32,000 nt of DNA from Candidatus Saccharimonadota bacterium (GCA_963718585.1 OY970357.1:660001-692000), one strand, 5' to 3'; counted from the first letter of the stretch, positions 2,024 to 27,087 are shown. Made by a program: numbers and translations. The notes: generated from the letters alone by a model not told the origin.

Positions 2024-2994
2024 ACAGACGCGGGAAGGTTCAACGTCTCACGGATCGAATAAGCGGTGGTGCCGCGGGATTCATAATAGGTCCGCATCTG
2101 GACCTCTGCCATGAGTCCGAAAAGGATGAATTGCACACCAACGATGATGAACATCGCTCCCACGATCGGGAGCGGCGTCTCGACCAGATGCAATCCGAGG
2201 AATCGCAGGACGACGGCGGCGACCTCGGCCATGCCGCCCAAAAGCAACGATGCAAAACCGATCGCGCCGAAGAAATGCATCGGCCGATTGAAATATTTGG
2301 TGAGGAACTTCACGACGATCAGATCGAGCAGCACCTTGAAGACGCGCGACATCCCATACTTGGAGACCCCGGAGACACGCGGCCGATGATGCACGACGAC
2401 CTCGCAGACGCGTCCGCCGGACCATGCCGCATACGCCGGGATGAATCGATGCATCTCGCCGTACAGGTCGATCCCTTGGATCAGATCGCGGGAATACGCT
2501 TTCATACTGCACCCGTAATCATGGAGCTTCACGCCGGTCATCCATGAGATGAGCGCATTCGCCATCCATGACGGGAGCTTCCGTGCGACGAGCTTGTCTT
2601 TCCGCTCTTTCCGCCATCCAGAGACGCAGGAATATCCCTCGTCGATCTTCGCAAGGAACACCGGGATGTCCGCGGGATCATTCTGCAGATCTGCATCCAT
2701 CGGAATGATGATATCCCCGGTCGCAAGACGCATGCCGCACGACATCGCAGCGGTCTGCCCGAAATTCCGCCGGAAGAACACGACCTTCACCCGCGGATCC
2801 GCGGCCGCCAGAGAGCGCAGGATCTCCGGACTCCGATCCTTGGACCCGTCATCGACAAAGATGAATTCAAAAGAGAGGTCCGGGCGTTTCCCGGCCTCTG
2901 CCGCGAGTTCATCGCGGAGGCGCGCCACGTTCCCCTCTTCGTTATAGACCGGAACGACGACCGTGACGGACCGATAGGACGCTCCCTCGCTCAT
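2020..2994 (-). CDS. GT2 polyisoprenyl-phosphate glycosyltransferase (GtrB/ArnC-like) with two C-terminal TM helices
   Basis: VTVVVPVYNEEGNV...FIFVDDGSKDRS...IIPMDADLQNDP, then the hydrophobic C-terminus HFFGAIGFASLLLGG...PIVGAMFIIVGVQFILFGL. Start re-called to ATG 2994 (MSEGAS...), which gives an ATGA overlap with the stop at 2991. The track start at 3009 is a GTG. Confidence 0.85.
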   Translation of the reverse strand: MSEGASYRSVTVVVPVYNEEGNVARLRDELAAEAGKRPDLSFEFIFVDDGSKDRSPEILRSLAAADPRVKVVFFRRNFGQTAAMSCGMRLATGDIIIPMDADLQNDPADIPVFLAKIDEGYSCVSGWRKERKDKLVARKLPSWMANALISWMTGVKLHDYGCSMKAYSRDLIQGIDLYGEMHRFIPAYAAWSGGRVCEVVVHHRPRVSGVSKYGMSRVFKVLLDLIVVKFLTKYFNRPMHFFGAIGFASLLLGGMAEVAAVVLRFLGLHLVETPLPIVGAMFIIVGVQFILFGLMAEVQMRTYYESRGTTAYSIRETLNLPASV

Positions 2995-4872
2995 ACCTTT
3001 AAAGCCCACCTACGGTACCACAATTGAAAGCTCAGTAAAGCCCACAATTCCTTCCGCCGATCGATCCGACCGGACCCCTGCTCCTGAAGCAGGCGATGGA
3101 CGAGATCCGGCGAAAAAAGCCCCTGTTCACGCAAAAAAGCCTCTGACGTCACATCCCGCAAACGCTCTGCCAACGGCCCCTTGAGCCATGCGGCCACCGG
3201 TATGGCGAATCCGTGTTTTGGGCGGTCAAGAACCTGATCCGGGATCCGTCCGCGCAGCAACTCCTTGAAAAGTCGCTTCTTCCTCCAAGCGCCGAACGTG
3301 TACGTGGGCGGAAGCCGCAACAGATAGGCCACTACCTCCGCATCAAGCAACGGCGCGCGCGCTTCCAATCCGTACCACATGGTCGCCCGGTCGACCTTGA
3401 CCATCACATCATCCATCAGATACGTGCGAAGATACGCCCAAGACCACGCCTTCCAGACCGAGGCGTCTGCACCTGCTTCGGCGGCGCGCATCGACAACAT
3501 CCGCTCAGCCGTATCGGCGGGGATCTGCCGACGGATCGCTTCAACGAACAATCGGGAAGCGGTCGGAGCGTCGAATGCGCCGCGCCACGCGACATCGCGC
3601 GCCCACACGTTCCCTTCGACGAGACCACGCGCGAACCGCTGCGCTTTGAACCCAGGACTGAAATAGCCCTCGCCCGCCGGGACGCGACGCAGGACCGCAG
3701 CAGATACTTTGCGGAGAGACGACGGAAGCGCCCCAATGCGCTCCATAAGGACGTGCGCTTGAATATGAGGATACCCACGCAGCAACTCGTCGCCGCCATC
3801 ACCGGACAAAGCCACGGTCAACCGAGAGCGCGTGAACCGCGACAGATGGAGCTGCGGAAGGACGGATGGATCCGCAAGGGGTTCATCGAACGCTTCGACT
3901 GCCTCATCAAGAAGCTCAAGGGCGGCATTCGGCGTCAGGACATCTTCATGATGGATCAATCCCAGAGCTTGGGCGACGTCCCGCGCTGCGGATCGCTCAT
4001 CATGCGACCGGTCTTCAAAACCGATCGTAAAAGCCTCAAGCGGTCGACCTGCCTGACGCGCGGCGCTTTCCGCAACGACCGCGGAATCGACGCCGCCTGA
4101 AAGAAAAAGTCCGAGTGGGACATCGGCGATGAGACGATCACGGACAGCGCGATCTACGCGCGACGCGGAGCCCGGCGACGGCGGATGACGGATCCACCGC
4201 CGTCTCGCCGGACGGACATTCCCAAAAGCGCCACGTACGCTCGATGCGCGCGTCGGCGAATGCCATTGCGCTCGCCGGTTCGAGCTTGTGAACGCCTTGA
4301 AAGATCGTCCGCGGCGTCGGGACCGCATCGGTCCGAAGGAAGGCGCTCAATGACGCGGGATCGATCTTCCGTTCGACGACGCCGGCCGCGAGCAAGCCCT
4401 TCAGCTCCGATGCGAACCACAACGTCCCGCCTTGCACGGTCCAATACAGCGGTTTCTTCCCCAATCGATCGCGGGCAAGGATGAGTCGGGAGCGATGTGC
4501 ATCCCAGATCGCGATCGCGAACATGCCCTGCAGATGCTCGAAGCATGCATCGCCCCACTCTTCATATGCATGGACGATCGTTTCCGTATCCGTCCCTGTC
4601 GAGAATCGGTGGCCAAGCGACACAAGCGCATCCCGCAACTCCCGAAACCCGTAGATCTCACCGTTCAACATGGCCCACACCGTCCCATCTTCGTTGCATA
4701 ATGGCTGATGACCCCCGGCGACGTCGATGATCGATAGACGCCGAAAGGCGAATCCAACGCCTGATGATTCATGAAACCCCTCATCATCCGGTCCGCGACG
4801 ACGGATCGCTCTGCTCATCCGTTCAAGAGCCGCCCGATCGCCGGTACCGGCATATCCTGCGATGCCACACAT
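2991..4872 (-). pseudogene. Asparagine synthase (glutamine-hydrolysing) family amidotransferase, split by one frameshift
   Basis: ORF 4138-4872 is the N-terminal class-II glutamine amidotransferase (GATase) domain (MCGIAGYAG...). ORF 2991-4328 carries the synthetase domain (DVPLGLFLSGGVDSAVV...) in a frame offset by 1. The two frames meet at about 4150-4180. Joined length is about 627 aa, matching the intact paralogue at 13858-15765. Confidence 0.7.
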
Positions 4873-12933: not shown

Positions 12934-13868
12934 TCTGCGACTTTTCGGAAATAGACGATGGTCTTTTCCAGACCGTCACGCAATTCGATCTTCGGCTCCC
13001 AGCTCAGCTCCGCTTTTGCGAGCGAGATGTCGGCTTTGCGCTGTTTCGGGTCATGTTCCACGGCCGGAAGATACGAGATCTCCGAGGCGGAACCCGTTAA
13101 CTCACGCACAAGGTCCGCGAGTTGCGCGATGGTGAATTCCCCCGGATTGCCGATGTTCACCGGCCCGGTGAAACCCTCCTTTTCCATCATCCGTACCATG
13201 CCTTCGATGAGATCATCGATGTACTGGAACGATCGCGTGTAGGATCCGTCACCGTAGATCGTGATGGGCTCACCACGCAATGCTTGAAGGATGAAATTCG
13301 AGACGACGCGTCCATCATCCTTGGCCATGCGCGGACCATAGGTATTGAAGATACGGATGACGCGGATATCAACGCCGTATTCACGGTGATAATCGAAACA
13401 GAGCGTCTCGGCGCAGCGCTTACCCTCGTCGTAACAGGCGCGACGGGAGATCGGGTTCACATTCCCCCAATACGATTCGGTCTGCGGATGGACGACCGGA
13501 TCACCGTAGACCTCAGATGTCGACGCCTGAAGGATCCGTGCACCGTTGCTCCGTGCGAGATCGAGCATGTTGATCATGCCGAGCACGTTCGTCCGCACGG
13601 TTTCGACCGGATCATGCTGATAGTGCTTTGGTGACGCCGGACACGCGAGATTGAAGATCCAGTCGACCTTCGCCTCGTACGGACGTTGGACGTCATGCTC
13701 GACGAACGTGAAACGCGGATCCGATTCCAAGTGCGCGATATTCGCACGAGAACCCGTGAATAGATTATCCAGGCAGATGACCGTATGGCCATCCGCGATC
13801 AACCGATCACAGAGATGCGAGCCGACGAAGCCGGCGCCGCCGGTGACAAGAATGGTTTTAGGAGACAT
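12930..13868 (-). CDS. uxs: UDP-glucuronate decarboxylase (UDP-xylose synthase), SDR family
   Basis: [23 protein letters not shown]...[11 protein letters not shown]...STSEVYGDP...[11 protein letters not shown]...[10 protein letters not shown] is a near-textbook UXS signature (GxxGxxG, YxxxK). Start re-called to ATG 13868. Confidence 0.9.
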
Positions 13869-15765
13869 GGGAGGTAAGCCAAGTGGAAAGCGCAAAAAGC
13901 ATCCAAAGCCGATTGCCGTGATCCGCACCGTGCGCGTTCTCCGTGATCAAGCGCTCGACCGCCTCATGACGGACGTAGCCGGCGAGCGGTCCGGACGGGT
14001 CAAGCACCCGATCCTTCAACTCTCCGGCCAAGGGACCGCGGAACCACTCGGCCAATGGAACCTGGAATCCGCGCTTTGTTGCGCTAAGGATCGGAGACGG
14101 GAGGATGTCCCGAAGCGCCCGACGCAATGCGACCTTGGTCATACCACGTTCCACCTTTTGATTCAACGGAAGCGACAACGCCAAAGCGATGACCTCTTGG
14201 TCCAAAAAGGGGGCGCGCGCCTCCAACCCCCACCGCATCGTAGCGCGATCCATCTTCACATTGAGATCGTCCGCCAGATACGACGTCAGATCGAACCGCA
14301 TCGCTGCATCCAGCGACGCATCGCCATGCATCTGCGCGGCGACGTACGCGACCCCGTCTTCTGCGTCCGTGTGCGCAAGAAACCCGGGATCGAACGTCTC
14401 ATGCAAACGTGCGGTCGAAAAATACGATCCGCAGAACAGCTCCCCGTATGCGCGTCCGGGATCCGCGCGGAGCATCTTCATCGTATCCGCCATCCGTAAC
14501 CACTTCGGATCGCTGATGATGGATCCAAACGCCTCGACACCGATCGTCGTAAAAAAAGAACGTGACAACATCCGGGCACGCTGATACGCGACATACCGAC
14601 GGTATCCGCCGAACAACTCATCGCCGCCGTCACCGGTCAGGACGACCTTGATCTCATTCGCGGTCTTCTGTGCAAGGAGCCACAGCGGCAACGCAGAGGA
14701 ATCTGCGAAGGGCGCATCATAGTGTCGGATGAGCTCGTCGCTTGTATCAAGCAGATCCGACGGCGTCGCGACGAACGCGTGATGTTCGGTCTTGAAGGTG
14801 TCTGCGATCAACCGCGCTTCCGTCCGCTCATCCATGTGTGGCACATCGAATCCCATGGTGAAGGTCCGCAATGGCTGCGAGACGTGGCGGGATGCAAAAG
14901 CGACCACGGCCGCGGAATCGATCCCCCCGGAAAGGAACGCCCCGACCGGAACGTCCGCAGCCAGTTGGCGGATCTTCACCGCGTCCTCAAGCTTCGACCG
15001 GATCTCTTCATCGATATCCGTAGTTTGGTGCTTGGCGTTCGGTGCTCGGGTTCCGGCATTTCCCGAGCTTTGAGCTTCGAGCTTCGCGCTTCGCGGATCC
15101 CACTCATGGTATCTCCGGATACGCCATCCATCCGTGTCCCACACACCGGATTCACCCGGTCGAAGTTGCATGATCTCGTGGAATCCGGTGCGCGGAGACG
15201 GAACATATTGCAGTCCAAGGAAAAGCCGGATCGCATCCTGATCCGGCTTCATGTCCAAAACCGCGGCAAGCGCTTTCAACTCCGACGCGAAGACGAGATC
15301 GCGCGATGGAGTGAATCCATAGAAGAACGGTTTCTTCCCCGTCTTGTCGCGCGCGACGAGCATGCGTTTTTTCGGCGCGTCCCAGAGAGCGAACGCGAAC
15401 ATGCCCCTAAGCCGCGGCAACACATCGTCCCCCCACACGCGATATCCCTCGAGGATCACCTCTGTGTCGGAAGAGGATGCGAAATGCGCACCGGATCGTT
15501 CAAGTTCCGTCCGGAGCTCGCGATAATTGTAGATCTCCCCGTTATACGTGATGGTCAGCTCTCCACGCACATCATGCATCGGTTGAGCGCCCGTCTGTGC
15601 AAGGTCGATGATCGCGAGACGCCGATGGGCAAATCCGACGCCCGGAACCAACCAAAGACCCTCTCCATCCGGACCCCGATGTGCGATCGCGGAGGACATA
15701 CGCCGAAGCGCCCCTTCGTCTGGAAGAGTCCCGTTTCGCGTCACGATGCCGGCGATTCCGCACAT
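13858..15765 (-). CDS. asnB: Asparagine synthase (glutamine-hydrolysing) family amidotransferase, intact 635 aa
   Basis: MCGIAGIV (N-terminal nucleophile Cys2), GATase-2 domain, then [17 protein letters not shown] (PP-loop SGGxDS). First gene of the long minus-strand operon. Confidence 0.85.
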
Positions 15766-19384: not shown

Positions 19385-19524
19385 AGGAATTCGGCGGCCA
19401 GCATAACACCGAGGGCGAAAGGTGGAAAGGTCGCGTATTTTGTGATCTCAAATCCTCCAATGAGCTTAGAGCGGACTCCCCCGAAAGATTCAGATCAAAC
19501 TCCCCCGAAAGACCTTTAAAACGA

Positions 19525-19919
19525 ATGTCGTCTCGAGCGGAGCCGAGAGACCTTCCTCGTGAATTCAATTCGAAGATGTCTCGACAGGCTCGACATGACA
19601 TCTATTTTTACGTCGTTTCAGAGATAATCGTCGTCTCAAGAATGAATGTCGTCTCGAGCGGAGCCGAGAGACCTTCCTCGTGGATTCAATTCGAAGATGT
19701 CTCGACAGGCTCGACATGACATCTATTTTTACGTCGTTTCAGAGATAATCGTCGTCTCAAGAATGAATGTCGTCTCGAGCGGAGCCGAGAGACCTTCCTC
19801 GTGAATTCAATTCGAAGATGTCTCGACAGGCTCGACATGACATCTATTTTTACGTCGTTTCAGAGATAATCGTCGTCTCAAGAATGAATGTCGTCTCGAG
19901 CGGAGCCGAGAGACCTTCC
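19525..19919. repeat. Tandem repeat, 121-bp unit, 3 full copies plus a 32-bp partial copy
   Basis: Units start at 19525, 19646, 19767 and 19888. Copies 1 and 3 are identical; copy 2 differs by one base (gaattc to ggattc at 19683). Copy 4 stops after ...gagaccttcc, where the GIY-YIG cassette begins. Confidence 0.95.
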
Positions 19920-19956
19920 ACTTGACACTGATATGAATTCTTGGCAGCGGTGAAGT

Positions 19957-20247
19957 ATGGTTCGAACGTATTACGTCTACATACTGACGAACGATATTCG
20001 TAGCGTATTGTATATCGGCATGACGAACGATATCCATCGTCGTTTATACGAACACCGAACAAAAGCCGTCCCCGGATTCTCAAAAACCTACAACCTCAAC
20101 CGTTTGATGTATTTTGAGACCACAAGCGACGTTCACGAGGCGATCGGACGCGAAAAACAATTGAAACGTTGGTCCCGAAAGAAAAAAGAAGCGCTCATCT
20201 TGTGTTCTAACCCTCATTGGAACGATCTCTTTGAATCCGAGGTCTAA
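19957..20247 (+). CDS. Stand-alone GIY-YIG nuclease family protein (COG2827/UPF0213, YhbQ-like), 96 aa
   Basis: YYVYILTNDIRSVLYIGMTNDIHRRLYEH (GIY..YIG and the conserved Arg) and GREKQLKRWSRKKK (catalytic Glu region). No additional DNA-binding domain. Confidence 0.9.
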   Translation: MVRTYYVYILTNDIRSVLYIGMTNDIHRRLYEHRTKAVPGFSKTYNLNRLMYFETTSDVHEAIGREKQLKRWSRKKKEALILCSNPHWNDLFESEV

Positions 20248-20250
20248 ATG

Positions 20251-20366
20251 GAAGATGTCTCGACAGGCTCGACATGACATCTATTTTACGTCGTTTCAGA
20301 GATAAATGTCGTCTCAAGAATGAATGTCGTCTCGAGCGGAGCCGAGAGACCTTCCTCGTGAATTCA
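20251..20366. repeat. Continuation of the 121-bp repeat on the far side of the GIY-YIG gene (unit offset 47 to its end, plus the first ~43 bp of the next unit)
   Basis: gaagatgtctcgacaggctcgacatgacatctatttt-acgtcgtttcagagataaatgtcgtctcaagaatga + atgtcgtctcgagcggagccgagagaccttcctcgtgaattcaa. Differs from the upstream copies by one missing T and two substitutions. Confidence 0.9.
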
Positions 20367-20630
20367 AGCGGCCTTTCATCGGTCATGAGATACCAAAAGG
20401 CCAGACACAAGGTCCGGCCTTTGGTGCCATTCCATCGGACGAATCCGACAGGGGCGATTTTGTGACCGTCCACCCCGCCCCTCGAGAGGGGCAGGGCGGT
20501 CACGCAGTTGTGATCCGTGCGGCAAGCCGCAGTGGATTACAAGCTGACGGTCTGTGACTGCGAGAGATCCTGGACGTACACGTCGTTCGTCCAATCGCGC
20601 GACGTCTGACTTGCCGACGAATGCGGCACC

Positions 20631-23600
20631 TCAGAGTTGTCGGACCAGAGGAACGTCCCCGTGGCCGCCGCGGCACCACTCGGAGCTGCTGCCGTGTCCA
20701 AGTTGAAGACATTGGCGCTGCTCGCGAAGCCACCGAAGGCGGACGCTGTTGAGGAGGTAGCCCGTGACGACCGGGGCAGTCGGATCGCGGTAGAACGTGA
20801 AGGTCACGCTCGAACCCGCACCCGCGCCGGAGACCGTCGCGTGCATCGTGTAGACGTTACCAGAACCGGAGATGGACTCTTCCTGACCAGGCTGCATCGA
20901 GAAGATGACATACTGGTTGGAGGAGGAGGACATCGAGCCCGTCTTCAGGTCCGTACCATCACCTTCCGTGACGGCATAGGTATTCGTGTCGATATCGCTC
21001 GAATTGCGGCGCATGCGGAAGTTGCTCAGAGAGACATTGCATGAGGAGCAATTGTTGATCGAGACCTTGAACACGACCTGCTTGAGGGCGACCGAGCCTG
21101 CGCTGTCAGCCGCGACCTGGAACTTCAGGAGATCCTGGTCGATGTTGGCCAGCGTGGTGGACGAGAGCGACTGCTTCGTCACGACCGGCTGGGTCTTGCG
21201 GAGGATCTGGGCGTTGCCAAAGGCCGCGCCGTCCGCCGCGTACACGCGCTCACCGGAAGCCTGACCGGTCGCCCGGATGTTCAGCTTCCCAGAGTAGTTC
21301 GCGTTCCACTCACCCACCGTGGAGCTGCTGTTGAGACCCATCGCCGGCGCATTGCCGGAACGGGCGACACCAGTCGTCGCACCACTGACCGTGGAAGAGG
21401 CCTGGACCGAAGAGAGCTTGGCCCAGAGTTGGAATTGGACGGAACCGTCCTTCGGCACCATGACCGGGCTGGCCGAGAGGTCGATATCCTTCGTCCCGGT
21501 CGCGCCGGAAGAGAGGACACCCTGACCCAAGACCGCACCGTTCGAGGCGATGGCGATCGCAGAGAAGTCTGCATTGTCCGCCGTCAGACCAGCGGTCGCC
21601 GAGGCGAGCACTGCGATGCGGTCAAGCGAGATGTTCTCGTACTGAGCCGTGGCCTTGTACTGAGCGAACGGCACCCACGCGTCCTTGCCTGCCACGACGA
21701 TGTTGGTCGTCGGATGAGCGTCAGCCTGGACTGTGAGCGTACCGCTGTTGAGGATCGTCTGGACGACGACCGGGGACGTACCGGCATTCGAGACCACAGA
21801 GGCCGAGAGCGTCGGGGTCACCGTGTTGGCATCCTGATCCTGAGCCTGGATGTCAGCGGCGGCACCAACACCGACCGCGATCGTGTCCGGAGTCGTTGTC
21901 GACGCCGTGGACGAGAACGAGGCCTTGACCGTGAGGTTCTTTGTCGTGCCTGCCGGGACCACCAAGTTCATGTTCGAGATCTGCGCCTTGCCGGTCGTGG
22001 TGTCCGGAGCCTTGGCGAGACCGACCTGCGTGTCGCCATCATAGAGGGCGAGCGAGGTCACACGCTGTGAGAAGCTGGCAGCTGTGTAGCCGGCGCCCGC
22101 GATGTTCGCCATACCCGTGAGGGTAAGGTTCGTCACCGTGACGTCAGACTGTGCCGATGCCGCGAGCGTCAAGCCAGCGACTGCGACATTCTGCTGCTTC
22201 TTCACGATCGTGCCCGAGACAGGGGTCGAGGCAAGCTGGACGTCGAGGCCGGAAGCCTTCACCGTCTGCGCATTGCCCGTCACATTGCTGTTCGGGACGA
22301 TCTTGGACGTGTCGAGGAATTCACCCGTGTCAACGACGCGGACATCGCTCGAACCAAACGCCGTGAAGGTCGCGTGGTAGGAACAGTCCTGATTGCCGAA
22401 GAACTCACCCGTGGCGTCCTCCGTGTTGGAGAGATCGGACACGAGTGCGAGATTCATCGTCTGACCCGTCTGGATGTCGAACGTGTCGTTGAAGGTGAAG
22501 GTAGCTGTGTCTGCGCTGTTTGCCGTCGCAGACGGGATCTCCTGCGGGCCCATAAGGGTCTGACCGGAGTCCATGTCCTTGATCTTCACCGAGCGGAAGT
22601 AGTTGGTTCCGGAGGAACCCTTGATCGCGCAAAGCGCCGGCGAGCCCGAGTCCGTGGCGATGGTGAAGACCACCTTGCGGATCTCAAGCGTGTTGTCCGG
22701 AGACGTCAACGCGAATTTGTACAACGGGACCGCGAGCTGACCCTTCGCAATGTTCTGGGTCACCGGACCGTTGAACGAGTTCGTGAGCTGTCCACCCTGG
22801 GTGGTCACCTCAACGTAGTTCGAGCTGGTGCCATCGAAGGAGCCGTTGGTCGAGATATCGATCGCGGCACCTGCGTTGTACACCGTGTCGATCGCGGAGA
22901 CGTCCGTGGAGTACTCAACGTACGTCCGGATCGTGCGGCCCGCGCGGCCCGCCACGTCTGCGTGCAAGGAGAAGATCTTGGTCGTCCCATTGCCCACGAC
23001 ATAGTACGGGTTGAACTTCAAGACGATGTGACCATCAGAGTTGACGGTCGCGGCTGTCGCAACGAGCGTGGAGCCCTGATAGAGCTTGAGGTTCGACAGG
23101 TCAGAGTTCGTCACCGAACCCCCCTGATAGAGCGTGATCTGATGGAGCTCGATATCATCGGTGCCATTGGCAGTCAATTTGAAGTTCGAGATCTCCACAT
23201 CCTGTGCACCGATCGTCGGGTTGGCCGGCTGGGAGCCCTTCTGGACGTCCAGCTCGGAAGCCGCCGTGGTACCGACCGTGAAGACATTGCCGCGGACCGG
23301 GAACGAGCCCGAGATCGTGGAGTTGCCGCTCACGAGGATGGAAGCCGCATCCTGAAGTTCGAATGCGTGCTGACCACCTGTGTTCGTCGGGGACGAGAAG
23401 TCACCATACACGTACACCGCCATCGTCTGCCCAGCCGGCACCATGAGGTTCAAGTTGTTGAACTCAACGATGTTGGTCTGAGAGTTGATGGAGCGGCCCG
23501 TGGTCAGGCGGTTCCCGTTCATGTCGTACAGGTAGACGTTCGAGAAGTCCGACGTCGCACCGACGCCAACGCGATGGAAGTGCATCGCGGTGACCGTGGC

Positions 23601-24422
23601 ATCACCAGCACCGGCCGTCAGGTTGACCTTGACGAGCGGCACGGAGGACGCATTCTTCGGAACGTTCATGCCCGCCGGCGTGTCTGACGCGAGTGCCACC
23701 GTGAGGGCACCGCCGACAGCCTGCGCGCCACCCGGGAAGATGTCCGCGAGATCGGATTCATATCCGGTCACGTCAGCACCATTTCCGTAGGTGATGGTCG
23801 TCTCAACGGCCCACTTGGCATCGAGATGGTTGGCAGCCATGCCAGCATCCGTGACCATGCGCTTAACACCGTTCTGAACGACGTAAACTGCCGGGTCACC
23901 AGCGTAGGTGATCAACTGACCATCCGGGTGGACGGGAGTCGAAACCGACGAACCGATGGAGTAGTTCACGAAGAACCCGTCCGGAACGTCGATGATGCGC
24001 TGAGCCCAGTTATCACCGTAGAGCTGCTTCGCGAGCGCCTCGGATTCGATCCAATGGAGCACGCCGCCCTTGGTGACAGCATAGGTTTTGGGGTCCGTCG
24101 TGATCTTGACCAGGTTGGTACCCGGGCGGACCGTGACGTTTGCCCCGATCTGAATGGCAGCGAGTTCTGCGTCGGTGATCGTTTTCACCGTCGAGAAATC
24201 GTTATACCAGGTAAAATAGGTCTTTTCGTTCGGGAAAACATAGCGCTTCCCGTCCGCTGCGTAGTAATACACAGCCGGGCCCGAAGCCTTGATGAGATCA
24301 CCGGTGTTCAGCGTGGCAGCTGACGCAACGTTCGGAAGCGCCAATGTACCAATACCGACCGACCAGGCGATCGTCGTCAAAGAGACGAACGCGGTAAAGA
24401 CCTTCTTGAGGGAATTTTTCAT
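20631..24422 (-). CDS. Large secreted surface protein (S-layer/adhesin-like): signal peptide, 3 N-terminal ~55-aa repeats, then repeated Ig-like beta domains. The C-terminus appears frameshifted (see findings).
   Basis: MKNSLKKVFTAFVSLTTIAWSVGIGTLALPNVASA is a Sec signal. N-terminal repeats of the type GPAVYYYAADGKRYVFP / DPKTYAVTKGGVLHWI / DPAVYVVQNGVKRMV. Then recurring ~110-130-aa Thr/Ser/Val/Gly-rich modules (..LYDMNGNRL.., ..LKLYQGSTLVA.., ..LALYDGDTQVG..). Start re-called to ATG 24422. Confidence 0.75.
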   Translation of the reverse strand: MKNSLKKVFTAFVSLTTIAWSVGIGTLALPNVASAATLNTGDLIKASGPAVYYYAADGKRYVFPNEKTYFTWYNDFSTVKTITDAELAAIQIGANVTVRPGTNLVKITTDPKTYAVTKGGVLHWIESEALAKQLYGDNWAQRIIDVPDGFFVNYSIGSSVSTPVHPDGQLITYAGDPAVYVVQNGVKRMVTDAGMAANHLDAKWAVETTITYGNGADVTGYESDLADIFPGGAQAVGGALTVALASDTPAGMNVPKNASSVPLVKVNLTAGAGDATVTAMHFHRVGVGATSDFSNVYLYDMNGNRLTTGRSINSQTNIVEFNNLNLMVPAGQTMAVYVYGDFSSPTNTGGQHAFELQDAASILVSGNSTISGSFPVRGNVFTVGTTAASELDVQKGSQPANPTIGAQDVEISNFKLTANGTDDIELHQITLYQGGSVTNSDLSNLKLYQGSTLVATAATVNSDGHIVLKFNPYYVVGNGTTKIFSLHADVAGRAGRTIRTYVEYSTDVSAIDTVYNAGAAIDISTNGSFDGTSSNYVEVTTQGGQLTNSFNGPVTQNIAKGQLAVPLYKFALTSPDNTLEIRKVVFTIATDSGSPALCAIKGSSGTNYFRSVKIKDMDSGQTLMGPQEIPSATANSADTATFTFNDTFDIQTGQTMNLALVSDLSNTEDATGEFFGNQDCSYHATFTAFGSSDVRVVDTGEFLDTSKIVPNSNVTGNAQTVKASGLDVQLASTPVSGTIVKKQQNVAVAGLTLAASAQSDVTVTNLTLTGMANIAGAGYTAASFSQRVTSLALYDGDTQVGLAKAPDTTTGKAQISNMNLVVPAGTTKNLTVKASFSSTASTTTPDTIAVGVGAAADIQAQDQDANTVTPTLSASVVSNAGTSPVVVQTILNSGTLTVQADAHPTTNIVVAGKDAWVPFAQYKATAQYENISLDRIAVLASATAGLTADNADFSAIAIASNGAVLGQGVLSSGATGTKDIDLSASPVMVPKDGSVQFQLWAKLSSVQASSTVSGATTGVARSGNAPAMGLNSSSTVGEWNANYSGKLNIRATGQASGERVYAADGAAFGNAQILRKTQPVVTKQSLSSTTLANIDQDLLKFQVAADSAGSVALKQVVFKVSINNCSSCNVSLSNFRMRRNSSDIDTNTYAVTEGDGTDLKTGSMSSSSNQYVIFSMQPGQEESISGSGNVYTMHATVSGAGAGSSVTFTFYRDPTAPVVTGYLLNSVRLRWLREQRQCLQLGHGSSSEWCRGGHGDVPLVRQL

Positions 24423-24743
24423 AAACCCTGATGGGTCTTGCAATAGAGCGCTGTGGATCCGTGAGAATCCACGAGCACATTTGGTTGGTTTGATGAGTAA
24501 TTCGCCGTACCCTCCGAAACATCGGAGTCGACCTTTTGTTGGTACAGCGTATATGTGGAACGAGCGGACGTGCGGACTCTGAACAAGTCAGAGAGCACGA
24601 TGCACGAAGACATCGCACTGCCTGTTTCCGTCAGAACGCCCGAAGGCATACGAACGGTCCCAGGAACATCCCCCGCCCGGCAGGGCGACCGTCAGAGACA
24701 GGCACCCTGGGAGGCGAAGCACATGCTTCATCCCGTGATGCCG

Positions 24744-26684: not shown

Positions 26685-26984
26685 ATGACACGAAAAGGAA
26701 ACCCATCCGCTGAAGAGGAACCGATCCGCGTTTCCATCAACGAAGCCGCGCGCCTGTTCGGCATCCATGCACGGACCATCCGGCGCGCTCTCGCGAACAA
26801 CGAGATCCGATACATCATCGTTCGAGGACGGTACAAGCTTCACTTCGGCTCGCTCGTCACGTGGTCGCAGCGCACGACGACCGTCCGGAACAAGCGCGAT
26901 GCCAGAGGGATCGGACAGTGGGTCGATCAATGGAAGATCACGAATCCAAAATACTCCCCACGTCCGCCTGAAGAAAAAGGTTAG
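26685..26984 (+). CDS. Helix-turn-helix DNA-binding protein (excisionase/MerR-like HTH_17 type), 99 aa
   Basis: VSINEAARLFGIHARTIRRALANNEIRYIIVRGRYKL matches the HTH_17/excisionase-family pattern. Divergent from the ECF sigma gene. Confidence 0.7.
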   Translation: MTRKGNPSAEEEPIRVSINEAARLFGIHARTIRRALANNEIRYIIVRGRYKLHFGSLVTWSQRTTTVRNKRDARGIGQWVDQWKITNPKYSPRPPEEKG

Positions 26985-27025
26985 AAGCGAGAAGCGAGAA
27001 GCGAGAAGCGAGAAGCGAGAAGCGA
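26984..27025. repeat. Heptanucleotide microsatellite (GAAGCGA) x6
   Basis: Six perfect units counted directly, starting at the last base of the HTH gene stop codon. Confidence 0.95.
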
Positions 27026-27055
27026 GGGAAAGGATGTTCCCTAATTTGGCATCCA

Positions 27056-27087
27056 TTCTAGATTCTAGATTCTAGCTTCTAGATTCT
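27056..27087. repeat. Heptanucleotide microsatellite (TTCTAGA) x4.5, with one TTCTAGC variant
   Basis: ttctaga ttctaga ttctagc ttctaga ttct. Its reverse complement (AGAATCT)n is a diverged copy of the first array read as (AGAAGCG)n. Confidence 0.95.

Follow-up and report, generated by a model that had tools for sequence, protein, structure and literature searches.

A probable Ssn-family nuclease gene between divergent hairpin repeats in a clean tandem array

Within a 32,000-nucleotide stretch of DNA (OY970357.1:660001-692000 of assembly GCA_963718585.1; hereafter, the window), a short gene for a GIY-YIG nuclease lies between two inverted hairpin repeats, and further copies of these repeats form a tandem array around it. 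We consider it quite probable that the locus as a whole is best explained as belonging to the Ssn family, that is, as an ssnA homologue bracketed by its cognate hairpin repeats, which are called SRM or, in Neisseria, NTS. The system itself is already published: the Ssn family of site-specific single-stranded DNA (ssDNA) endonucleases with flanking NTS/SRM hairpins was described in 2025 (Chenal et al., Nat Commun 2025;16:2388; PMC11893778), and on sequence grounds the window locus falls within it as a member with a divergent class of SRM. What is newly seen here is a divergent hairpin class not picked up by the published SRM pattern, a host that is probably a member of the Patescibacteria (candidate phyla), and an unusually clean tandem amplification.

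The nuclease gene and its hairpin arms

The reference point for the family is SsnA of N. meningitidis, a 94-aa single-domain GIY-YIG protein (CDD cd10448) that binds the NTS hairpin CGTCATTCCCGCGMAVGCGGGAATCYRG. It acts on ssDNA only and on one strand only, cutting a few nucleotides upstream of the hairpin, and does not cut double-stranded DNA (dsDNA); the three bases 5' of the palindrome control cutting, the C 3' of it controls binding, and cutting is lost in the Y6A, Y17A and E64A variants (PMC11893778). Characterised Ssn enzymes include those of Neisseria and Wolbachia. Across bacteria, at least one SRM flank accompanies 71% of Ssn homologues and both flanks are present in 42%, and NTS-bearing DNA transforms about five-fold better once ssnA is deleted (PMC11893778). 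A first-pass annotation of the window had called the biology of short GIY-YIG proteins poorly defined, a description that was overtaken by the characterisation of the Ssn family in 2025 (PMC11893778).

The window protein resembles SsnA in length, domain content and active-site residues. The 96-aa open reading frame (ORF) at 19957-20247 matches Pfam PF01541 (GIY-YIG) over residues 5-77 (E=7.6e-15) and no other domain, and, as in the single-domain Ssn enzymes, there is no DNA-binding extension. Its AlphaFold2 model is compact, with a predicted local distance difference test score (pLDDT) of 91. In an alignment of 22 sequences, the residues Y8, Y19 and E66 do not vary, and their spacings of 11 and 47 equal those of Y6, Y17 and E64 in Neisseria. 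As a reference sequence we use the gonococcal SsnA orthologue, a 94-aa ORF that retains Y6, Y17 and E64 and has a consensus NTS on both sides (L125 in our numbering of loci, NZ_CP119140.1; this record is a 2.17-Mb N. gonorrhoeae chromosome entered as a plasmid in PLSDB). The tblastn match between the window protein and this orthologue (E=1e-14 against 7.3 Gb) lies below the value of E < 1e-10 that serves as the working homology criterion for Ssn (PMC11893778). NCBIfam holds no model specific to the Ssn family; weak PHROGs and NCBIfam matches of the window protein are to homing or intron endonucleases, and PADLOC returns only weak matches to candidate systems.

Oriented hairpins also bracket the gene, as in Ssn loci. 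An arm that we call A lies on the + strand at 19890-19919 and an arm A' lies on the - strand at 20251-20278, each with GTC 5' and C 3' of its stem. Both arms recur in a tandem array, for which Tandem Repeats Finder (TRF) reports a single strong entry, at 19523-19919, with a period of 121, 3.3 copies, 99% matches and a score of 787. In a register check, the units starting at 19525, 19646 and 19767 contain 0, 1 and 0 mismatches, respectively, and the one starting at 19888 departs from the repeat after exactly 32 matching bases (...GAGACCTTCC). The alignment restarts at 20251, at unit offset 47, and continues through a fifth arm A and 12 nt of core to end at 20367; this stretch differs from the unit by one 1-nt deletion and two substitutions, all within the linker. 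Each 121-bp unit consists, in order, of arm A (67% GC), a 15-bp core (33%), arm A' (54%) and a 48-nt AT-rich linker (33%). In the fourth unit, the core TCGTGAATTCAATTC is the segment swapped for a 331-bp cassette (19920-20250), which is made up of a 37-nt leader and the ORF, with both arms intact. In one A...A' pair the spacer is taken up by the nuclease gene, whose stop codon lies 3 nt from A'. The first-pass annotation had described three near-identical units, a fourth cut after 32 bp and resumed at offset 47, a stand-alone GIY-YIG ORF in place of the 15-bp core, and hence an array of 'empty' units with one 'occupied' unit, and TRF, the register check and the Pfam match agree with it in each respect. 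It had also offered the 121-bp units as cargo-less derivatives of a selfish element. The repeat itself stands, but the relevant module is the inverted hairpin pair A-spacer-A', and the 48-nt linker is local filler. Within the linker (19600-19647 and its other copies), the sequences GTCGTTTCAGAGA and GTCGTCTCAAGA resemble degenerate arm-A heads, so this filler may consist of eroded hairpin repeats.

A and A' are two related hairpin modules in inverted orientation. Five copies of A and four of A' occur in the 32-kb window, and every one of them falls within 19527-20355; the 30-nt arm A, with its 5 copies, does not occur in any of 100 shuffles. In the window hairpins, a Watson-Crick stem of only 5 bp encloses a purine-rich interior (GAGCGGAGCCGA, GAGCCTGTCGA). 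The oligonucleotide d(GCGAAGC) is a stable hairpin, and by analogy we suspect that the purine-rich interior forms G.A pairs and a mini-loop. With DNA parameters, the A-A' pair folds as two separate local hairpins and not as one long A:A' stem. An RNA fold pairs A with A', and the unit was accordingly considered as a single long inverted repeat; we dropped this candidate because the arms of a given locus diverge by compensatory changes and the DNA fold gives two local hairpins.

The leader of the nuclease gene (Table 1) follows a layout shared by a subfamily of homologues, namely TTGACA, exactly 17 nt, nAGCGG, 6-7 nt and ATG, with a close variant (TTGGACA) at L011. It may act as a promoter or ribosome-binding site, to judge from this layout. 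A consensus scan makes no promoter or ribosome-binding-site call within 19920-19956. As the hexamer at -10 does not resemble TATAAT, either the expression signals are unusual or TTGACA has another role.

Several observations weigh against placing the locus in the Ssn family. The published SRM search pattern, HGTCWYN(0-2)YYVSBRHN(0-5)WNVSBRGN(0-2)RNCYNB, which was built from 29 genomes and is a search aid rather than a functional definition, has 0 matches on either strand of the window, and among the 85 homologous loci described below it recovers no more than 5 upstream flanks and 9 downstream ones. With their 5-bp stem, their purine-rich interior and no long perfect NTS palindrome, the window hairpins form a divergent class, which makes them predicted rather than established substrates. 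The comparison with SsnA, at 42% identity over 86 aa without gaps (BLASTP E=4e-24), involves the gonococcal protein, whereas the protein that was assayed is the meningococcal one. Finally, the polarity of the gonococcal ssnA locus, reverse-gene-forward, is a minority arrangement, seen at 4/83 loci.

Table 1. Positions of the features in the window. L numbers are our labels for homologous loci in other genomes.
Feature	Position	Strand	Basis or remark
ssnA-like gene, 96-aa single-domain GIY-YIG nuclease, Y8/Y19/E66 intact	19957..20247	+	Pfam PF01541 and homology
Leader of nuclease gene: TTGACA, 17 nt, CAGCGG, TGAAGT, ATG	19920..19956	+	Layout kept in L001, L002, L010, L037 and the window
Tandem array	19523..19919	.	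Period 121, 3.3 copies; TRF
Arm A copy 1, GTCGTCTCGAGCGGAGCCGAGAGACCTTCC	19527..19556	+	SRM-like: GTC, stem GTCTC/GAGAC around GAGCGGAGCCGA, C; predicted cleavable orientation; local DNA hairpin
Arm A copy 2	19648..19677	+	Exact copy
Arm A copy 3	19769..19798	+	Exact copy
Arm A copy 4, directly 5' of nuclease cassette	19890..19919	+	Equivalent arm at equal position in L001, L002, L010, L011, L037
Arm A copy 5; core cut short at 12 nt (20356-20367), A' partner absent	20326..20355	+	Exact copy
Arm A' copy 1, GAAGATGTCTCGACAGGCTCGACATGAC; - strand reading GTCATGTCGAGCCTGTCGAGACATCTTC / GTCATGTCGAGCCTGTCGAGACATC(TTC)	19572..19599	-	SRM-like; predicted cleavable orientation; DNA fold z-score -3.3
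Arm A' copy 2	19693..19720	-	GTC...C signature
Arm A' copy 3	19814..19841	-	GTC...C signature
Arm A' copy 4, start 3 nt past nuclease stop codon	20251..20278	-	Junction (stop abutting GAAGAT...) also in L009, L010, L011, L037, L043
15-bp spacer (core) TCGTGAATTCAATTC of empty pair	19557..19571; 19678-19692 (one A>G change); 19799-19813	.	Sequence comparison
48-nt AT-rich linker	19600..19647; 19721-19768; 19842-19889; 47-nt variant 20279-20325	.	Sequence comparison
1270-aa ORF	20631-24443	-	No Pfam match; signal-peptide-like N-terminus; TTG start doubtful

Homologous loci and gene-less pairs

About 2000 homologues of the window protein are detectable. Those encoded at L001, L002 and L009 are 64-69% identical to it and have matching arms at matching places; at L001 and L002, the ORF runs through A', which yields C-terminal tails such as ...QFEDVSTSST. 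To obtain a broad, unselected sample, 80 metagenome loci were taken by protein similarity and combined with the earlier loci into a set of 85 that is non-redundant. In this set we searched for a hairpin signature comprising GTC, a 5-nt stem, a loop of 3-60 nt, the complementary 5 nt and C, with a flank of 160 nt for the upstream count. The signature occurs upstream of the gene (within 160 nt) at 59/85 loci, mirrored downstream at 65/85, and on both sides at 52/85, against a background of 3% per flank in the rest of the same contigs and 0.5% in shuffled flanks. The first-pass annotation had proposed a search of relatives for the hairpin modules, and this search finds homologues flanked by like hairpins as well as empty pairs elsewhere, which we describe below. 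This is contrary to the outcome that the annotation had named as refuting, namely modules confined to this locus and homologues that never have such flanks.

The polarity of the nearest hairpins is forward-gene-reverse, as in the window, at 45/83 loci. The stems vary widely among loci, and the constant elements are the GTC 5' of the stem and the C 3' of it. Upstream and downstream stems are unlike each other at 35 of the 57 loci compared, with each arm still self-complementary, which argues for selection on each hairpin rather than on complementarity between arms. Clustering is common: at least three hairpins fall within 600 nt at 41/74 loci, and tandem arrays with periods of 33-119 bp are present at 6 other loci. 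Support for co-evolution between protein and hairpin type is weak (Mantel r=0.12, with the observed value reached in 20/2000 permutations), and the signal is inseparable from shared ancestry. Taken across these loci, the gene-between-arms layout reads as the ancestral, family-wide state and not as a local invasion.

Other aspects of these loci were noted along the way. The hairpins of some homologues (GTCATTCCCGCGAAAGCGGGAATCC) resemble the Neisseria dRS3 repeat. Among near-identical Clostridia contigs (L005-L008; ~5270-5960 in L005), a 166-bp block of GTCATACCGA...-type hairpins is present or absent downstream of the ssn homologue within nearly identical flanks. In two Patescibacteria, the ssn homologue lies between lexA and dinB (Pol IV) (L009 10001-10291, and L011), and in a third it lies between uvrB and uvrA (L003 10001-10315); this recurrent siting among DNA-damage genes may or may not have meaning. 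A diversity-generating retroelement signature (bAvd and reverse transcriptase) is found at 15496-16890 of L009, 5 kb from the ssn homologue.

The inverted pair also occurs without the gene. A scan for the A' pattern GAAGRTNTYTCGACNRGCTCGANAYGAC in one genome per GTDB species returns 35 loci, spread over Patescibacteria, Bacteroidota, Gammaproteobacteria, Clostridia, Rickettsiales and Bdellovibrionales, against a chance expectation that we estimate at ~0.02. The two variable positions of the A' 28-mer covary, as T..A, G..C or C..G. The nuclease gene is directly upstream of A' at 5/35 of these loci and near by at two more, and most of the remainder are A-spacer-A' pairs that lack the gene and have spacers of 3-50 nt. 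In several genomes, 2-3 A' sites are spread over separate contigs, or a single contig holds more than one (for example JAZDIB01, with L011, L034 and L041). Across L010-L044, the A' arm is almost invariant (GAAGATyTCTCGACAAGCTCGArATGAC), unlike its partner arm A, which is variable and tolerates loop insertions. The central junction of the relatives' empty pairs is a palindrome, CTTCCAATTGGAAG. The A' pattern has 0 matches in a scan of viral contigs, and tblastn of the window protein against phages gives no match.

Proposed activity, origin of the array and alternative readings

By homology with the Neisseria and Wolbachia enzymes, the window nuclease would bind its hairpin only in ssDNA, on the strand that reads 5'-GTC-stem-loop-stem-C-3', and would nick a few nucleotides 5' of each GTC, on the + strand at arm A and on the - strand at arm A'. 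With A cleavable on the + strand and A' on the - strand, every pair would be open to cleavage once on each strand, with the predicted cuts lying just beyond its two ends. Occasions for cutting would arise when the region is single-stranded during replication or repair, or when it enters the cell as transforming DNA. On an incoming single strand, a cut would separate the pair, or the gene, from the homology on one of its sides and reduce local recombination, an effect of Ssn cutting that was shown for Neisseria (PMC11893778). By analogy, the cellular role is likely to be the cutting of hairpin-bearing ssDNA, such as incoming transforming DNA, which would shape recombination around the locus. 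For the array, the most likely origin, again by analogy, is unequal recombination or replication slippage between direct-repeat arms spaced 121 bp apart; the copy number of the neisserial intergenic mosaic element (NIME) arrays of dRS3/NTS hairpins varies in like manner. Near-identity extends over the whole of the three full units, linker included, and local unequal recombination would fit this better than repeated insertion would.

A different explanation is that A-gene-A' constitutes an autonomous mobile element, of which the empty pairs are non-autonomous derivatives, with Ssn making the cuts, host functions making the joins, and the array arising by repeated local insertion. The architecture invites this comparison, and Chenal et al. 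themselves liken NTS-ssnA-NTS to an insertion sequence or to the RAYT/REP system and suggest domestication (PMC11893778). The predicted cuts, if correctly placed, would fall outside both arms, and empty pairs are dispersed within genomes. The A' 28-mer is near-identical across distant phyla, which suggests horizontal spread, and the array (48% GC) and the ORF (44% GC) are AT-richer than the window as a whole (58.7%). GIY-YIG enzymes hydrolyse DNA and do so with no covalent intermediate, so strand transfer would require other factors. At the outer ends of ~20 elements that we inspected, there is no consistent target-site duplication, and no orthologous site was found in both filled and empty form. 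The three full units are identical down to the linker, which is unexpected under insertion, and the gene position shared by L009 and L011, between lexA and dinB, points to vertical inheritance. Phage matches are absent from both the viral contig scan and the tblastn search against phages, and of the 33 matches in the plasmid collection, 32 fall on records typed as non-mobilizable, several of them chromosome-sized. We therefore judge a mobile element to be unlikely.

The first-pass annotation had offered the gene as the cargo of a selfish element or, alternatively, the unit as the preferred insertion site of the nuclease, and we find neither a target-site duplication nor a filled-versus-empty site, phage copies or evidence of transposition that would sustain them. 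The features of an insertion sequence or of a MITE (miniature inverted-repeat transposable element) are likewise lacking, as the sole gene encodes a hydrolytic nuclease and the arms often differ by compensatory changes (35/57 loci). The sequence AATTG, present at both cassette junctions, was considered as a target-site duplication and rejected: it represents the palindromic junction centre and the stop codon, and it is not at the element ends. A bolder version of the mobile reading would make the hairpin pair and ssnA a still-active ssDNA-based mobile element, a third independent solution beside IS200/IS605 and RAYT/REPIN, with A' recording horizontal spread and the array reflecting ongoing amplification triggered by Ssn; this we regard as doubtful.

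It is improbable, too, that the copy number of the array, as distinct from its existence, is an artefact of assembly. The source is a metagenome-type assembly, and short reads make it difficult to count units that differ by 0-1 mismatch over 363 bp. On the other side, the junctions of the occupied and partial units are unique, the megabase contig suggests good assembly, and many independent assemblies show comparable arrays and hairpin clusters beside homologues. Least probable of all is a homing-type event in which the leader-and-ORF cassette invaded the unit centre of a pre-existing array when the empty site was cleaved and then repaired by recombination: the exact replacement of the 15-bp core between intact arms, the palindromic junction of the relatives' empty pairs and the weak matches to homing and intron endonucleases would agree with it, but the window protein has no DNA-binding extension, which homing GIY-YIG enzymes need (PMC11893778) and which those of the I-TevI and Seg type carry as a C-terminal domain, characterised Ssn relatives do not cut dsDNA (PMC11893778), the gene-between-arms layout appears to be ancestral and family-wide, Rfam identifies no group I intron (no match of any family reaches the gathering thresholds, and those at E<10 are noise), and no phage context or phage homologue (tblastn) was found.

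Genomic setting and comparison with known systems

The window is a glycosyltransferase-rich surface-polysaccharide locus, and the array is situated between a Wzy-like ligase gene and the 1270-aa ORF, which may encode a large surface protein of unknown family. By analogy, this setting is reminiscent of the NTS clusters found by surface-protein genes. Directly to the left of the array, two copies of the direct repeat CTCCCCCGAAAGA, separated by 28 nt, lie at 19467-19515; its sequence is unrelated to the hairpin arms. To the right, the 1270-aa minus-strand ORF probably has its terminator in a GC-rich inverted repeat (GTGACCGTCCACCCCGCCCCTCGAGAGGGGCAGGGCGGTCAC) at 20462-20503, where the consensus scan makes no terminator call because the repeat has no T run. 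Further away, an intergenic region between two minus-strand genes (26983-27087) contains the microsatellites AGAAGCG x6.3 (100% matches) and ATTCTAG x4.7 around a short palindrome, GGGAAAGGATGTTCCC. Diverged asparagine-synthase paralogues at 2991-4328 and 13858-15765, ~10.8 kb apart, account for several direct repeats of 70-80% in the window.

The locus reveals no new mechanism, and its interest lies elsewhere. Candidate-phyla bacteria of small genome depend on DNA uptake, and the locus extends the Ssn/SRM system to a bacterium that is probably one of them. As its hairpin class escapes the published SRM pattern, current SRM censuses probably undercount the system. The array also offers a compact natural substrate for a new Ssn specificity, with five A and four A' predicted sites within 850 bp, which is of practical interest because Ssn enzymes are under development as sequence-specific ssDNA cutters.

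Among structurally characterised proteins, the best PDB matches of the window protein are UPF0213 by sequence (E=1.5e-7) and, by structure, 1zg2 followed by Slx1. The UPF0213 proteins (BH0048, PDB 1ZG2; EF2693, PDB 1YWL) have the same minimal GIY-YIG fold at only ~29% identity. The nuclease domain of Slx1 also has this fold, but Slx1 adds a zinc-finger domain, works with a partner, Slx4, and cuts branched dsDNA.

The RAYT/REPIN and IS200/IS605 systems resemble the window locus in having a small nuclease gene between inverted hairpins that are recognised as ssDNA, together with scattered gene-less doublets. A short tag adjoins the stem in both cases, GTAG/CGTC in those systems and GTC here. The enzymes differ in kind, as the window protein is a hydrolytic GIY-YIG nuclease and not an HUH Y1 tyrosine transposase, which places the locus outside RAYT/REPIN.

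The closest described analogue of the array is the NIME, in which dRS3 hairpins are separated by RS elements, an AT-richer filler of 19-214 bp, in strain-variable copy number (PMC1797815). Both alternate GC-rich hairpins with AT-richer filler, giving a wave in GC content, and both adjoin genes for surface structures, a putative one in the case of the 1270-aa ORF, although the position of the window array between the Wzy-like ligase gene and the 1270-aa ORF is a single anecdote. The dRS3 consensus ATTCCCN8GGGAAT is absent from the window, and where the NIME is a mosaic of many RS families, the window array simply repeats a single unit.

It is the Ssn/NTS-SRM system itself (PMC11893778) that the locus most resembles as a whole, with differences in detail. 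The window stem is a short 5 bp with the interiors GAGCGGAGCCGA and GAGCCTGTCGA, in contrast to the NTS palindrome, ATTCCCGCG...CGCGGGAAT, and the window has the order forward-gene-reverse where the gonococcal ssnA locus has reverse-gene-forward. The probable Patescibacteria host is not mentioned in the main text of PMC11893778, and the window repeats form a near-perfect tandem array. Common to the two are a single-domain GIY-YIG protein of ~94 aa, the Y/Y/E residues at equal spacing, inverted GTC...C hairpins around the gene, and extra copies of these hairpins near by.

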